64,000 nt of DNA, from contig JAJZQJ010000002.1 of NCBI GenBank assembly GCA_021851895.1, positions 5,046-69,045 on the forward strand. The letters run 5' to 3'. The translations under genes and the position numbers were made by a program. Position 1 is the first letter of the stretch; every line of letters starts with the position of its first letter. Below the pieces are notes generated by a model. It ran no database searches and was not told the DNA's origin. It saw nothing but the letters and a program-made list of their open reading frames with translations. Below, piece after piece: positions 16,283 through 20,380 of this stretch. The stretch is from a bacterium. Lineage in GTDB: Bacteria > Patescibacteriota > Minisyncoccia > Phycocordibacterales > UBA6899.

Positions 16283-16594
16283 ATGCCACAAGTAAGAAAA
16301 GAAAAACGCACGTACGCAGATCGTAGGGAATACCTTAAGCGTGCAGTTTCTGAACGTAGGAGAAAACTGAAGCTCATGCTGATAGAGTATAAGGGTGGAA
16401 AATGTGCCCGTTGTGGATATTTCTCATGCCCTGCGGTTTTTGATTTACATCATCTCGACGAGTCAAAGAAGGATTTTGGTTTTGGGGTAGGGGGTATTAC
16501 TCGATCATGGGATAGACTAAGGACAGAGGCTGACAAATGCATTCTTCTCTGTGCAAATTGTCATAGGGAATTACATGCAGAAAATGCAAGATGA
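16283..16594 (+). CDS. HNH endonuclease (small, free-standing)
   Basis: 103 aa with CARCGY...DLHHLD...N...CANCHRELH (a zinc-finger HNH motif). The ATG at 16283 lies 9 nt downstream of TGGTATACT. The track's upstream extension overlaps pmbA. Confidence 0.75.
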   Translation: MPQVRKEKRTYADRREYLKRAVSERRRKLKLMLIEYKGGKCARCGYFSCPAVFDLHHLDESKKDFGFGVGGITRSWDRLRTEADKCILLCANCHRELHAENAR

Positions 16595-16624
16595 AATAGA
16601 TAAAATTAGGCATTTTATACTACT

Positions 16625-16652
16625 TGCAAACGGCAAACAATTTTGCTATTAT
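16625..16652 (+). promoter_or_regulatory. promoter for the tRNA gene (TTGCAA - 16/17 nt - TGcTATTAT)
   Basis: -35 TTGCAA at 16625-16630 and an extended -10 TGCTATTAT at 16644-16652. Confidence 0.5.
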
Positions 16653-16706: not shown

Positions 16707-17036
16707 TCCGGTGTAGCTCAGCGGTAGAGCAGTACGCTGTGGCGTTAAACGCAGCCCATTTCAGTAATGAAATGGTGAACAACGAGGTGAATTGCTGGAA
16801 ACCCTAACGAGAAAGACGAGGGCGATCAGCAGCCAAGCTTTGCGAGGAATCGCACTGAAGGTTCAGAGACTATCCGAAAGGAGTACTGAATATGCAAATA
16901 TTTGGGAAGCGCCTCGCACCCCACTCTTATAAAGCCGCAAGGCTTAACGAAGAAGGGTGATGATATAGTCCTCCCACTACGAAAGTAGTGAACATGAGTA
17001 ACGTATTGGTCGCAGGTTCGAATCCTGCCGCCGGAG
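16707..17036 (+). tRNA. tRNA-Asn(GUU) split by a group I intron; exon 1 16707-16740, exon 2 16999-17036
   Basis: Acceptor stem TCCGGTG/CGCCGGA (one G-U pair); D arm GCTC-AGCGGTA-GAGC; anticodon stem GTACG/CGTAT. The spliced anticodon loop is CTGT|TAA, giving anticodon GTT. T arm GCAGG-TTCGAAT-CCTGC, discriminator G73. Confidence 0.7.
16741..16998 (+). ncRNA. group I self-splicing intron (IC3-like, no ORF) inserted between anticodon positions 35/36
   Basis: Conserved R element GTTCAGAGACTA (16861-16872) and S element GATATAGTCC (16961-16970) form P7. P-like AATTGCTGGAAA and Q-like GATCAGCAGCC are present. P1: exon GCUGU pairs with IGS GCAGC, with a terminal U.G. P10: intron CGUUA pairs with 3' exon UAACG. 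The intron ends in G. Confidence 0.7.
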
Positions 17037-17037
17037 C
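17019..17037 (+). repeat. att-like core, copy 1 (inside the tRNA 3' end, from the T-loop to the discriminator)
   Basis: CGAATCCTGCCGCCGGAGC, identical to 17229-17247. Confidence 0.6.
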
Positions 17038-17049
17038 AGAAAACATTAA

Positions 17050-17082
17050 TCCATGAAGCGAAGCTTCATGGATTTTTGTTTT
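17050..17082 (+). terminator. intrinsic terminator after the tRNA
   Basis: TCCATGAAGC-GA-AGCTTCATGGA followed by TTTTTGTTTT. Confidence 0.6.
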
Positions 17083-17228
17083 CCTCCGCCGCAGGATTCG
17101 AAGGGCGGAGGCCGCGAAGCCGGCCGCTGAGGTTCCGACCGAAGCGGTCGACGCCGAGCCCTGGCCCTACCTGCACCCCCTATTTCTCAAGCCGAAGGCG
17201 CTAGAGAAAAACGGAGGTGACAGAGGGG

Positions 17229-17247
17229 CGAATCCTGCCGCCGGAGC
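17229..17247 (+). repeat. att-like core, copy 2 (direct repeat of the tRNA 3' end, 210 bp downstream)
   Basis: 19/19 identity with 17019-17037. The flanks differ, so this is not a full tRNA copy. Confidence 0.6.
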
Positions 17248-17252
17248 CAATC

Positions 17253-17287
17253 AAAAAACGAGACACGAAGGTGCCTCGTTTTTTTGC
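17253..17287. terminator. bidirectional intrinsic terminator
   Basis: AAAAAACGAGACAC-GAAG-GTGCCTCGTTTTTTT. Confidence 0.55.
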
Positions 17288-17327
17288 TTTCACGATAATT
17301 CGAGATAAAGGATCTGTGATAGAGAAC

Positions 17328-17540
17328 CTACTTCTTTGTGAGCTGCATGGAGATGTATGCGAGATACACCGCTGCGATACCAACGAGACCATAGACGATT
17401 CTTGCGATCATCGACATCGCGCCAAAAAGGGTAGCGACGAGATCGAAATCGAACAGGGCGACCAGTCCCCAGTTCAGTCCACCGACAATGACAAGCACGA
17501 TAGCAAGCCAGTCGAGCGTATTGAGTTTGTTCATGTTGTT
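17328..17540 (-). CDS. DUF378-like small membrane protein
   Basis: 70 aa from MNNMNKLN.. onward. WLAIVLVIVGGLNWGLVALF is typical of the DUF378 family. The track's N-terminal extension to 17669 is doubtful. Confidence 0.55.
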   Translation of the reverse strand, partial: NNMNKLNTLDWLAIVLVIVGGLNWGLVALFDFDLVATLFGAMSMIARIVYGLVGIAAVYLAYISMQLTKK

Positions 17541-17656: not shown

Positions 17657-18118
17657 ATGTCATTTCCACTTCTCGACAGCATCGGTTTATTTCTCATGCT
17701 CTCAGGTTTCATCATCGGGCTCGGTGCAGTGACGGTCATCGACATCCATGGCTTTCTTGGTCGCACATCCTCATATTGGACTGAGGCGACCACGCGAACG
17801 CATAAAGTTACGAAGCCCATGATATGGGCCGGCATCTTTCTCTCTATCGTCGGTGGCGTCATATTCTATCGCAATCAGCCGTTCGCGGGGATTCCTGCGG
17901 CGCATGCGCTCATCGTCGTCGCGCTCCTCTTTAATGGATATTTCCTGTCCTGCAAAGTGAGTCCATTTCTCTTAGCTCGTGAGAGCGAAGGGAAGTCGGG
18001 GGAATTACTCCCGAGTGCATGGCAGCATAAGATCATGGTGAGCCTCATCGTGTCTGACATCGGCTGGTGGGGAGGACTCGTTCTCCTCGTTGTGTACCTC
18101 ACGAGTCGTTTATCATAA
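17657..18118 (+). CDS. hypothetical membrane protein (4 TM)
   Basis: 153 aa with four hydrophobic helices. No motif recognized. Confidence 0.4.
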   Translation: MSFPLLDSIGLFLMLSGFIIGLGAVTVIDIHGFLGRTSSYWTEATTRTHKVTKPMIWAGIFLSIVGGVIFYRNQPFAGIPAAHALIVVALLFNGYFLSCKVSPFLLARESEGKSGELLPSAWQHKIMVSLIVSDIGWWGGLVLLVVYLTSRLS

Positions 18119-18212
18119 ATGGGTGCCAGCGCGTAGGCACAAGTGCTTCGTGTATTGCGCTCCTCTTGTCCGTCGCTCTTTCTGTTCCGCTGCGGGAGTA
18201 TTTATGTGTAAT

Positions 18213-18242
18213 GAAAAACCGGGCGCAAATTGCGCGCCCGGA
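18213..18242 (-). terminator. intrinsic terminator for the GC-rich membrane-protein gene
   Basis: CCGGGCGC-AAATT-GCGCGCCCGG preceded by A5 (a T-run on the minus strand). Confidence 0.65.
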
Positions 18243-18257
18243 GTTTATTCTAATGTG

Positions 18258-20135
18258 CTATTTCTTCTGCTCACGGAGCAGCTGGAGCATCTTCTGCTTC
18301 TCGGCGTCCGTGAGGTTTTCCATCTGACTCGTCGCTTCACGAGCGTCCTTGATGACCGCGTCGGCCTCCGTGGAGACTTTGTGCTGGGCATCGAAGGACT
18401 CTTGGACCTTCGTCTTCGCGAGGGTGAGACCCTGGCACTTGATCGAGTTCAGTGCGATGACCGACTCGTCGTTCTCGAGGAACGATACGGTCACGATGTC
18501 GCCGACGTGGAGCACAGGCGCGACGCGCACGGCTTCATCGGTTCCGCGGGTGGCGAACAGGCGATCGTTCACGCCCTCAAGCGTGAAGTAGAAGGTCTTG
18601 TTCCCGCCGATGACGGTGTCGCCGGTGCGCGTGATGCGCACGGGACCGAGGGTCTTCTTCGCGAGCGCCTTGCCACTCGCCGCGACGGCGTTGCCGTCGC
18701 TCGCGAGCTTCTGGCGGTACGACTCGAGCGCGGTCGTGAGATCACTCTCGATGACGAGCGTATTCACGTTCTCCATAGAGACGAGCGCGACCTTCTGGAA
18801 GAAGGACTGCTCGTTGCTCACGATAGGGATGACCCAGGTGGCCTTGCCGAAGATGTTGTATGGCGTCGGGTGCGTGGGGTGCCAGGTCGTCGCATTCGCG
18901 CCGAGCTGACTGCTCACGGCCTTCATCGCACCGTCTTCGGTCGTGCCACGCATCGGATAGTACTCGGCGCCAGCGATACCCTTGCGGGAGTCGATCAGCA
19001 TGAGTCCGATGAGGGAATCATCCTTCGCATTACTGCTCGTGATGCCGACGCTCCAGTAGAGCTTGTCGCCGAGCTTCACGAGCCACAGGTCGCCCGCAGG
19101 CTTCACGCGGTCATGGTCGTCCCAATTGATGAAACCATGGACGAGGTTGCCCCAGTCGACGATCTGTTCCTTCGCTTGCGCCATGGGGCGGACGCGATCG
19201 ATCCACGAGGGAATCGTGCCGTCCTGCTTGTACTCGCAAGAACCGGTTTCGGGATCAGCGATGATGACGCCGACGGTCTGTTCGCCCCAGAAGCCGATGG
19301 TGGGAGTCATGACGCCGTACGTGTAGTACGGATGCCAGTTCTCGTCCACCTCGAAGGTGACGTCACTTCGGTTCGCCCAGGGAATGTCCTTGTAGACCTT
19401 GCGGTCCAGGTTGTCCCCGAAGACCGCGTTCGGTGTGTACCGAATGGCGAACTTCTTGCCGAGGGCATCCTCGGTGACGAGGGTCGCCTCACGGTTCGGG
19501 TCCTGCGCCGACACCCTGATGTAGCCGGGGATGATGTTGTCGTTGAGACTCGCGAAGTCCGTTGCGTAGTCGAGGGGGAAGATCCACCAGAGTTCGCCGC
19601 GGACCTCTTGGACGGCTCCGTGTTCGAAATCGACATCGAACAGCGACCCGAGGGATTTCCCGTCGGCATTCTGTCCGAGCGCTTTCTTCGCGATGGTGTG
19701 CGCCGTTGCCGCGGAGACCAAGCGGATGTGCTTGGTGTCGGCGAGGGGCACGTTTTCGTTGAAGCGCTGCTTCATCGAGACGTTCCCGATCACGTTGCGG
19801 TACGCTTCCGCATTGAACATCGGACTTGTGCCGATGGCCATGCCGAAGAGGCCGACGAGGATGAGGACGGGGACGGCAATCCCCGCGTGGGGATGGAAGT
19901 CGAAGTATTCGTCTTTTTCGAAGCTGAAGACGAGGCCGAGCACCGCGCCGGTGAGGACGAGGAGCCAGGACTCCGCGAAGCGGAACCCGACCGTGGGGAG
20001 GGCGAAGTACCCGCCGCAGAGGACGAGCAGGAAGGAGAGGCTGCCAGCGGTGATGTACCGCCACGGCGTCTTGATCTTCGCGAGGCCGATGGTGACGATC
20101 GCTGCGATCGCGGCCAGGATGGCGAGGGTGAGCAT
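18258..20135 (-). CDS. large membrane protein: N-terminal TM helices + about 520-aa extracytoplasmic domain (strongly GC-rich gene)
   Basis: 625 aa with hydrophobic N-terminal helices, then a soluble domain with balanced composition and a charged coiled-coil tail. The opposite-strand 695-aa ORF is R/D/G-rich, typical of an antisense artefact. Confidence 0.55.
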   Translation of the reverse strand: MLTLAILAAIAAIVTIGLAKIKTPWRYITAGSLSFLLVLCGGYFALPTVGFRFAESWLLVLTGAVLGLVFSFEKDEYFDFHPHAGIAVPVLILVGLFGMAIGTSPMFNAEAYRNVIGNVSMKQRFNENVPLADTKHIRLVSAATAHTIAKKALGQNADGKSLGSLFDVDFEHGAVQEVRGELWWIFPLDYATDFASLNDNIIPGYIRVSAQDPNREATLVTEDALGKKFAIRYTPNAVFGDNLDRKVYKDIPWANRSDVTFEVDENWHPYYTYGVMTPTIGFWGEQTVGVIIADPETGSCEYKQDGTIPSWIDRVRPMAQAKEQIVDWGNLVHGFINWDDHDRVKPAGDLWLVKLGDKLYWSVGITSSNAKDDSLIGLMLIDSRKGIAGAEYYPMRGTTEDGAMKAVSSQLGANATTWHPTHPTPYNIFGKATWVIPIVSNEQSFFQKVALVSMENVNTLVIESDLTTALESYRQKLASDGNAVAASGKALAKKTLGPVRITRTGDTVIGGNKTFYFTLEGVNDRLFATRGTDEAVRVAPVLHVGDIVTVSFLENDESVIALNSIKCQGLTLAKTKVQESFDAQHKVSTEADAVIKDAREATSQMENLTDAEKQKMLQLLREQKK

Positions 20136-20380
20136 GTATGCTCCTGTGTTGTGCCGGATATCGATCCGGTGTGTTGAAGGGAAAGAGCTTCGGCTGTCCG
20201 AAACTGGGAGATATTATACAATATTTTTATAGATTTGTAAATAGTATCGATGTGAGGGTTTTTCTCGCTTAAAATATTCCCCGGAACTTGCGAAAAGACA
20301 TCCTGATCTGACACGGAAGGGTCCTATCGGAGTTTTCGCATGTCCTGTGCGGAAAACTGAGAAATTTAGAGCTGAATTTA

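Follow-up and report, generated by a model that had tools for sequence, protein, structure and literature searches.

The duplicated 3' end of a Patescibacteria tRNA-Asn gene and the folded, recombinase-less cassette between its copies: a probable integration footprint

Mobile elements habitually integrate into tRNA genes, and partial tRNA copies beside tRNA genes are a standard footprint of integrative elements. The DNA considered here is a stretch of 64,000 nucleotides of contig JAJZQJ010000002.1 from a member of the Patescibacteria (the whole stretch is called the window below), in which the last 19 nucleotides of a tRNA-Asn(GUU) gene are found a second time shortly downstream. Since such copies are the usual mark of integrative elements, the bare observation is an ordinary one. 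Less ordinary is the filling between the copies, a palindromic and apparently structure-conserved unit of the 150-200-nt size range that has no recombinase, and that recurs, stacks and carries cargo behind tRNA-Asn across the Patescibacteria, a phylum of very small genomes whose mobile DNA and its enzymes are poorly charted. The two 19-mers are, with slightly better than even confidence, the junction repeats of a site-specific recombination into the block of tRNA-Asn(GUU) that runs from the T loop to the 3' end, left by a miniature or decayed element.

Integrase attL/attR repeats at tRNA genes, with a T-loop sublocation class among them, were reportedly described by Reiter in 1989 and by Williams in 2002. 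As in the window, the repeat in that class extends from the T loop to the end of the tRNA, the tRNA is rebuilt on one side with a fragment left on the other, and the element supplies a replacement terminator. The window unit differs from the class in its length of 191 bp, in having no integrase, and in its extra inverted copy of the core and its conserved folded interior. The cis-mobilizable elements (CIMEs) of Streptococcus are kilobases long, bounded by att sites and derived from known integrative and conjugative elements; derivatives akin to miniature inverted-repeat transposable elements (MITEs) are comparable non-autonomous elements. CIMEs share with the window unit the att-type flanking repeats, the lack of a recombinase of their own and tandem stacking, but in the present case no autonomous element with matching ends came to light and mobility is only putative.

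Folded recombination sites are represented by attC of integrons and by the attP(+) hairpin of the CTX phage, which is used by XerCD. They are parallels only for how the present module might work: inverted target-like copies, a variable structured spacer, structure conserved beyond sequence, and arrays. Unlike them, the window module has no integron integrase nearby and the cargo of its relatives lies in both orientations; it is a member of neither family. An integron cassette with its attC was itself considered and rejected, no tyrosine recombinase being found near the site and the cargo open reading frames (ORFs) being in both orientations. In E. coli, tyrT is followed by 3' repeats that each start with the last 19 nt of tRNA-Tyr. 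There, as in the window, the tRNA 3' end is repeated shortly downstream of the gene; however, the tyrT units are tandemly homologous as a whole, whereas only 19-24 nt are shared here and the interior is foreign.

The tycheposons of Prochlorococcus integrate into tRNA genes and are associated with partial tRNAs and degenerated remnants, newer elements pushing older ones outward, and both tyrosine and large serine recombinases occur in them (Hackl et al., bioRxiv 10.1101/2020.12.28.424599). The tRNA-Asn loci described below resemble them in their partial tRNAs, remnants, serial arrivals and both types of recombinase. Tycheposons differ from the window unit in that they are kilobases long, carry integrase and replication genes and belong to another phylum; a palindromic cassette of 150-200 nt is not described there.

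In the window the exact 19-mer CGAATCCTGCCGCCGGAGC is present on the + strand at 17019-17037 and at 17229-17247. No further copy exists in the window even at 3 mismatches, 0.02 matches are expected there by chance, and two matches were reached in none of 100 shuffles. The 19-bp direct duplication that a preliminary description had reported is thus real, and within the 64 kb the pair is unique. Held in register, the repeat grows to 24 nt at 92% identity (AGGTTCGAATCC... versus AGGGGCGAATCC...). This block is the sole homology between the two units, and the sequences after each copy are non-homologous beyond it. The repeated segment is the 3' part of the tRNA, from the C of the T loop through the acceptor strand and the discriminator to C74.

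The left junction is an intact tRNA, the spliced gene folding as tRNA-Asn, and the right junction is a bare fragment. At the second copy no cloverleaf or pseudo-tRNA is detected by ARAGORN, nor by Rfam at E values up to 1 over 17038-17330; by eye, no more than 3 of the 5 T-stem pairs are possible there. Both tools therefore agree with the non-tRNA context first proposed for this copy, and a second (pseudo)tRNA with full structure, named at the time as the observation that would overturn the att reading, was found by neither. The copies differ in what follows them. Copy 1 reads GAGCAG and then runs into a bidirectional terminator, copy 2 reads GAGCCA and then runs into a different terminator of its own. 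Copy 2 with its encoded CCA would be the displaced original 3' end of the tRNA. The proposed attL/attR form thus holds for the repeat itself, which spans the middle of the T loop to the 3' end with the intact tRNA on the left and the fragment on the right. It is further backed by the asymmetry in CCA and terminators, by a hypervariable flank and by recombinase-bearing elements at the same tRNA end in related DNA. The features of the locus are as follows.

16624-16652, + strand: promoter-like site TTGCAA-17-TATTAT with TG, upstream of the tRNA, from a consensus scan only; it lies between the end of an ORF with an HNH-like motif (16594) and the start of the tRNA (16707)
16707-16740, + strand: 5' exon of tRNA-Asn(GUU), ending in CUGU, with the splice site after U35 (ARAGORN on the joined exons; U16740 forms a wobble pair with G16754 in P1, by eye)
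16741-16998, + strand: group I intron (RF00028)
16999-17037, + strand: 3' exon of tRNA-Asn, with discriminator G17036 and C17037 followed by AG, so that CCA is not encoded (sequence and ARAGORN join)
17019-17037, + strand: repeat copy 1 (D1), attL-like core, the exact 19-mer within 24 nt at 92% identity
17038-17084, no strand assigned: left end of the insert, with AGAAAAC, a 12-bp hairpin with a GAA loop, and T/A runs; bidirectional terminator (terminator scan on both strands; the same in the relative L003)
17085-17102, + strand: inverted arm (I) CCTCCGCCGCAGGATTCG, reverse-complementary to the tRNA 3' end with mismatches (supported by inverted repeats I1 and I3; pairs with D2; the arm is present in 13 other loci)
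17103-17228, + strand: GC-rich interior of W type, with a helix holding a GGA/GA internal loop, a GC-rich hairpin, a long variable hairpin at 17172-17221 and the right end GTGAC (GC content, fold and family alignment)
17229-17249, + strand: repeat copy 2 (D2) plus CA, that is CGAATCCTGCCGCCGGAGC-CA, attR-like core, the exact 19-mer followed by CA
17253-17284, no strand assigned: second hairpin terminator, between A and T runs (inverted repeat I4, 93% complementary; scan positive on the - strand; kept in L003)

The sequence of events that would produce this arrangement is as follows. The ancestral gene would have ended ...CGAATCCTGCCGCCGGAG-CCA and then the terminator at 17253-17284, which was probably the native tRNA terminator and also serves the convergent DUF378 gene. 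The incoming element would have borne its own copy of the last 19 nt of the tRNA. Recombination in the 19-nt block would have rebuilt the tRNA from element DNA, leaving the gene followed by CAG and the element's bidirectional terminator, and the original 3' end would have been pushed 210 bp downstream. The 191-bp unit, which has no recombinase gene, would be either a non-autonomous miniature moved in trans or an element with its interior deleted. The direction of these events, the mobility of the unit and the recombinase involved are all putative; what is observed is the repeat, the family with its defined ends, the hot spot and the presence of recombinases at this tRNA end in other loci. In the predicted empty site the tRNA would be directly followed by CCAATCAAAAAACGAG, with a junction ...CCTGCCGCCGGAGCCAATCAAAAAACGAG preceded by GGTCGCAGGTT, and the predicted junction of the circle (attP) would be GTGAC(AGAGGGG)CGAATCCTGCCGCCGGAGCAGAAAACATT.

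The stretch between the copies measures 191 nt and is devoid of ORFs; the ends of the unit are AGAAAAC...GTGAC. Its left part is made of AGAAAAC and the 12-bp hairpin with its T run, which scores as a terminator on both strands at 17048-17074. Its right part, 144 nt long, has 66.7% GC, with 73.6% over 17085-17171, compared with 31-39% in the adjacent intergenic DNA and 49% in the whole window. A terminator plus a strongly GC-rich segment had been described from the outset, and both are there. The AT-rich surroundings mentioned with them are a property of the immediate spacers but not of the window overall. The reported hairpin, CCTCCGCC-GCAGGATTCGAAG-GGCGGAGG, is present at 17085-17113. Rather than a loop with the inverted T arm, as taken at first, it is better to see in 17088-17102 an inverted copy of the tRNA end, whose 15 nt are 93% complementary to 17017-31.

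Further complementarity links the 28-nt stretch 17073-17100 to 17229-56 (71%) and, as inverted repeat I2, 17039-59 to 17063-83 (90%). In the minimum-energy fold the inverted arm pairs with copy 2 and closes a branched structure of 165 nt, with z values of -8.3 on the + strand and -8.9 on the - strand. In an alternative pairing the arm associates with the tRNA's own end and generates a 40-nt palindrome around the terminator. An independent assembly of the same sequence (L002, Logan SRR13189623) breaks inside the GC-rich module, at window position 17141, so that at least one assembly is interrupted by it. This suggests either palindrome assembly trouble or heterogeneity in the population.

The composition of the insert bears on a simpler explanation, in which the repeat arose by slippage or unequal crossing-over, as a local duplication in which no mobile element took part. 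In its favour, the direct copies are 210 bp apart, and after each come A-rich DNA and a terminator hairpin whose loop is of the CGAAG type. In addition, no recombinase was found in the window, either by tblastn with nine recombinases or by Pfam on a sample of 10 of the other ORFs, in agreement with the initial remark that no integrase is nearby. However, homology after the copies does not go beyond 24 nt in register, the interior, at 67% GC, is unlike local DNA, and the same interior and ends are found behind tRNA-Asn in unrelated contexts. We therefore regard a local duplication as very improbable. For the integration footprint, the lack of a recombinase in the 191-bp insert and in the window means that the unit is at most a non-autonomous or decayed member of its kind.

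A scan of metagenomes with the last 30 nt of the tRNA recovered at least 120 loci, about 99 of which have at least 250 nt of downstream sequence; the counts from such collection scans are lower bounds. A common layout is seen in 13 of these ~99 loci: after the tRNA come a terminator, the tRNA end in inverted orientation, a hairpin region of 60-130 nt, a direct copy and a terminator. The spacer from the tRNA to the inverted arm is 38-52 nt long and contains the terminator hairpin, and the arm, (G)CTCCGGCG..GCAGGATTCGAA, is the reverse complement of the tRNA end. The motif AGGATTCGAA lies 55-88 nt past the tRNA, with a direct tRNA-end copy after it, in 13 of the ~99 loci, where about 0.26 would be expected by chance (our estimate for an 11-mer within 1 kb).

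At least three unrelated types of interior occur, which have only the arms in common. The type found in the window, W, is also present in L003, L036, L103 and L040 (nhmmer E values of 1e-19 to 1e-38, with the window match at 17085-17246), and all five W-type members share their ends: D1 and (A/T)AGAAAC on the left, GTGAC and CGAATCC on the right. Elsewhere the unit is ~150-200 nt long and forms a self-contained cassette, met with the same interior and ends behind tRNA-Asn in unrelated genomic contexts. Two to three units stand in tandem in L036, and L003 has a nested arrangement. In L041 and L092, 1-4 kb of unrelated cargo genes separate the units, each block ending in a module or tRNA-end copy; the cargo ORFs between units are in both orientations. 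A scan of GTDB for the pattern inverted arm-gap-direct arm returned one true match (L131, a metagenome-assembled genome of the Patescibacteria) and three chance matches. The insert is thus a member of a recurring, strongly folded cassette family in Patescibacteria and not random debris. To call it a decayed remnant, one of the two options first offered, does not do justice to the module, which is structured and conserved, has an inverted arm and fixed ends, and shows compensatory changes.

Should these units move in trans, they would correspond to MITEs, but with site specificity, and would mark a hot spot of gene exchange in the phylum. A MITE in the usual sense was considered and rejected. 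Inverted arms are present, but what flanks the unit is 19 nt copied from one specific target, and there is one copy of the unit in the 64-kb window, further copies lying almost only behind tRNA-Asn in the DNA examined.

The homologs of the 153-aa protein encoded downstream of the unit put the window in the Patescibacteria. L003 is the single close syntenic relative recovered, its coding DNA being 80-90% identical to that of the window; the species representatives of GTDB, scanned with the neighbouring PmbA protein, yielded no relative. It shares with the window the intron-containing tRNA, the terminator and the module's first 87 nt, with one mismatch in 173 nt over 16999-17171 (by eye). A wholly different long hairpin replaces window positions 17172-17228. 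Copy 2 of L003 has one substitution and is split by ~105 nt that hold an extra, tiny unit of the form D-AGAAAAC...GTGAC-D. On sequence comparison this mosaic pattern fits exchange rather than slow decay. Conservation of the arrangement as core genome in all relatives had been named as a possible objection to the att reading. The unit is found in about 13% of the sampled loci and is not universal, but it is present in this single close relative.

Downstream of the unit, the DUF378 gene and a gene for a 153-aa protein are syntenic in L003. This is relevant to the other option first offered, that copy 1 marks one boundary of a large island comprising the downstream GC-rich genes and restriction-modification operon. 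Restriction-modification and RadC genes are indeed present 3-13 kb downstream, and the serine-recombinase elements found at tRNA-Asn elsewhere carry defence cargo. Yet there is no third 19-mer in the 64 kb at up to 3 mismatches, copy 2 is only 210 bp away and has a native-looking flank, the syntenic genes follow immediately, the window has no detected recombinase, and the unit recurs as a self-contained entity. An island of this kind is extremely unlikely.

The 3' end of tRNA-Asn is a recombination hot spot, since many pairs of loci are 80-100% identical upstream of the gene and unrelated downstream of it. In nine other loci a recombinase gene abuts this tRNA end. Eight of the nine encode large serine recombinases and one a tyrosine recombinase (Phage_integrase), so that the attribution of the repeat to a tyrosine-integrase element in the preliminary description is not established. 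The serine recombinases have the Pfam domains Resolvase, Recombinase and Zn_ribbon_recom. All nine genes are antisense to the tRNA and their frames run into it, the C-terminal ...LRRQDSNLRP being the complement of the tRNA end. ORFs of large serine recombinases that run antisense into the 3' end of a tRNA gene are found in L073, L078, L088, L090, L094, L101, L113, L122 and L134-L143. Further recombinase cases at tRNA-Asn are L134, L138, L139 and L142, and truncated recombinase remnants are seen in L038, L061, L105 and L116 (partly by eye).

The clades of large serine recombinases concerned comprise >7000 and >1700 proteins in Patescibacteria, with members at tRNA-Asn, tRNA-Arg (GCG) or tRNA-Leu (CAG). 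One serine clade is always at tRNA-Asn, and its element starts right after GAGCCA whatever the acceptor sequence. Cargo of the defence type is carried by its elements in L138 (1-9700), L139 (1-9600) and L142 (1-9900), namely an N6_N4 methyltransferase, a ResIII helicase, DUF4365, a ThsB-like TIR protein and a BglII endonuclease. In L022/L123 and L093, other partial 3' halves of tRNAs with different acceptor sequences, for instance GGTCGTAGGTTCGATCCCTACCCGGGGAG, lie 20-50 nt after the intact tRNA-Asn; these are further signs of serial integration.

In L078, L090, L134 and L137 the recombinase gene lies between near-perfect inverted repeats of ~50 bp. The final ~45 coding bases of the gene fall within them, and the far repeat terminates with the complement of the tRNA's own last 5-7 nt. 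Regulation, inversion or a role as transposon-like ends are possibilities for these repeats. L093 is a recombinase-less, hairpin-collapsed copy of an L090-type element with the same right-hand sequence, which indicates that losing the recombinase gene can give rise to the succession of tRNA end, hairpin and inverted arm. The window unit could have the same origin, as the leftover of a large-serine-recombinase element that lost its gene from between the inverted repeats, with the 40-nt palindrome as the collapsed repeat pair. Its left end, GGAGC-AGAAAACATTAA, resembles that of L078, GGAGC-CAGTCAGAAAATTGCAA, and the complement of the window's left end still reads ...CFL-LRRQDSN in the recombinase frame (partly by eye).

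It must be noted, however, that the similarity of the left ends is short (~9/14 nt) and that the inverted arm is 5-7 nt long in the intact elements as against 15-20 nt in the modules. The region to the right of the intact elements is not homologous to the window module (nhmmer, none in L134-L137), and these elements have no direct tRNA-end copy within up to 9.8 kb. Moreover, their junction follows GAGCCA, which leaves the start of the repeat in the T loop without account. Descent from a serine-recombinase element is therefore rather unlikely, though less so than a local duplication. An outright large serine recombinase element was rejected for the window unit, no such gene being found in the window by tblastn and the tRNA-Asn clades joining after GAGCCA. 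The idea that the inverted arm is one of two symmetric half-sites in an attP for a serine recombinase was also rejected; it predicts abutting arms with no spacer, which is not seen.

Several of these results, and some others, weigh against an integration footprint as the origin of the repeat. The serine clades at tRNA-Asn join after GAGCCA and appear unable to make the repeat: with a crossover at the extreme 3' end, a 19-nt repeat starting in the T loop is not their product. No intact element with a W-type or B-type module at its far end was seen in the nine fetched loci of two recombinase clades, and the window itself has no detected recombinase. Among the at least 120 tRNA-Asn loci, blastn revealed no empty site syntenic with the window, L003 being occupied as well. 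Scans of IMG/VR yielded no free or attP form, whether with the predicted attP junction, the insert core, two arm-gap-arm patterns or the right ends of the W and B types; the single match is a chance one, inside a GC-rich ORF. The 64 kb hold a single copy of the unit, so that multi-copy behaviour within a genome is only putative. Lastly, a plain att scar needs no inverted arm, nor does it predict compensatory changes in internal hairpins.

The presence of an inverted tRNA-end copy at the left edge of each member means that the unit can fold on itself, and the fold appears to be maintained. In the B-type alignment (seven sequences), 82% of the cells are paired versus 72% in shuffles, and 16 pairs show changes on both sides compared with 8.0 +/- 2.0 after shuffling (0/500 shuffles reach 16; slid controls give at most 9). 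Its helix P5, of 4-5 bp, keeps a constant UGUAA loop over four different stems. In the W-type alignment A3 (five sequences, two of them near-identical), 89% of the cells are paired versus 81%, the eight double-change pairs are reached by 4/500 shuffles, and the GGA/GA internal loop is constant. Of 12 family members, 10 fold better on the + strand (the tRNA sense), the totals being -813 versus -741 kcal/mol. Since few sequences are aligned and the structures come from those very sequences, these figures are taken as support for a conserved fold and not as proof of an RNA. Recognition as folded DNA, a read-through RNA or the upkeep of a palindrome are possible roles for the fold. Together with the inverted arm, it allows, at low probability, for the module to be a functional RNA or a site active in its folded state.

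In the first of these two cases the module would be a structured RNA in which the arm helix of 12-20 bp mimics the stacked acceptor and T stems of tRNA-Asn and closes a junction of hairpins. It would be transcribed by read-through from the tRNA promoter or as the 3' end of cargo transcripts, and the direct repeat would exist for the sake of a tRNA-Asn-like 3' end (for processing, stability or as a decoy), not as a result of recombination. The stability of the fold, far above that of shuffled sequences (z about -8), the better folding of the tRNA-sense strand, the compensatory changes in both alignments and the terminator after each module are in line with such an RNA. So is a B-type hairpin exactly at the place of the D and anticodon arms of a tRNA. 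Likewise, between the window and L003, 17038-17171 is better conserved than the adjacent self-splicing intron.

On the other hand, the module is insulated, as bidirectional terminators stand on both sides and a scan picked up nothing promoter-like in the interval from the strong terminator upstream to the module itself. No family of Rfam 15 matches the module in the window or in eight other module-bearing loci. The inverted arm has degenerated in the window, L103 and L040, and this is not compensated. At least three unrelated interiors that share only the arms suit a recombination site better than a single RNA, and the module is present in only ~13% of the loci, sometimes in tandem or nested. 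The comparative argument, besides, comes from alignments of five and seven sequences with structures derived from those sequences. A functional RNA is accordingly a doubtful explanation, if a less remote one than the leftover of a serine-recombinase element.

In the second case the inverted arm, the hairpins and the direct arm of the module would together be a recombination site that works in folded form, the two arms rebuilding as a duplex the T arm and acceptor end of tRNA-Asn. By analogy with the folded sites described above this is conceivable, and we hold it to be about as tentative as the RNA. If it were correct, the serial capture of recombinase-less cassettes and their cargo behind tRNA-Asn would amount to an integron-like platform seeded by a tRNA gene in the genome-reduced Patescibacteria. 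As a variant, the folded unit may be an RNA that mimics a tRNA acceptor and is carried by the cassettes.

Some known RNAs were also considered. A transfer-messenger RNA (tmRNA) or permuted tmRNA, which GGAUUCGAA and the acceptor-like 3' end might call to mind, is not detected by ARAGORN or Rfam (there is only an 18-nt T-arm match, E 0.1). The unit is also too short for a tmRNA, no tag is encoded, and a standard tmRNA is present in a related locus. Retrons, bridge RNAs, omega-RNAs and the homing guides of CRISPR-transposons, suggested by a structured unit that borders on a 19-mer identical to its target, were dismissed, as no gene for a reverse transcriptase, recombinase or TnpB-like protein lies next to the unit and the supposed guide is sequestered in the closing stem.

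The tRNA-Asn(GUU) gene itself (16707-17037) is split by a group I intron of 258 nt at position 35/36 of the anticodon loop. The intron is matched by Rfam RF00028 at 16736-16991 (74.5 bits, E 1.4e-18), and ARAGORN yields a clean tRNA-Asn(gtt) only for the join 16740/16999, with a U before the splice site and a G ending the intron. Because the intron interrupts the gene, ARAGORN calls no tRNA on the whole 64-kb window. The intron thus hides the tRNA from standard finders, and predictors of islands or att sites that start from tRNA calls will miss the locus. Group I introns at position 35/36 of Patescibacteria tRNA-Asn have been described and shown to splice (PMC13011429), and the intron class of the window is therefore already known.

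A free-standing ORF at 16283-16594 (+), with the HNH-like motif CANCHRELH at its end, is located 112 nt 5' of the intron-containing tRNA. Homologs with 50-63% identity lie beside or inside tRNA-Asn in 10 other loci, and the ORF is absent from L003. It has no Pfam match at 1e-3 and is possibly a relative of homing endonucleases tied to the intron.

Farther downstream, at 18090-20177, the source annotation calls a gene on the + strand (657 aa). An ORF on the - strand at 18258-20135 (625 aa), whose N-terminus is hydrophobic, has more the look of a protein; local GC is 0.60. Only the ORF of this - strand was scanned against Pfam, where it has no match. The 153-aa product of 17657-18118 (+), which is syntenic in L003 as noted above, is a membrane protein of no Pfam family. 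It has 2633 homologs with 73-80% identity across many classes of Patescibacteria, a conservation that is unusually high for an uncharacterised protein.

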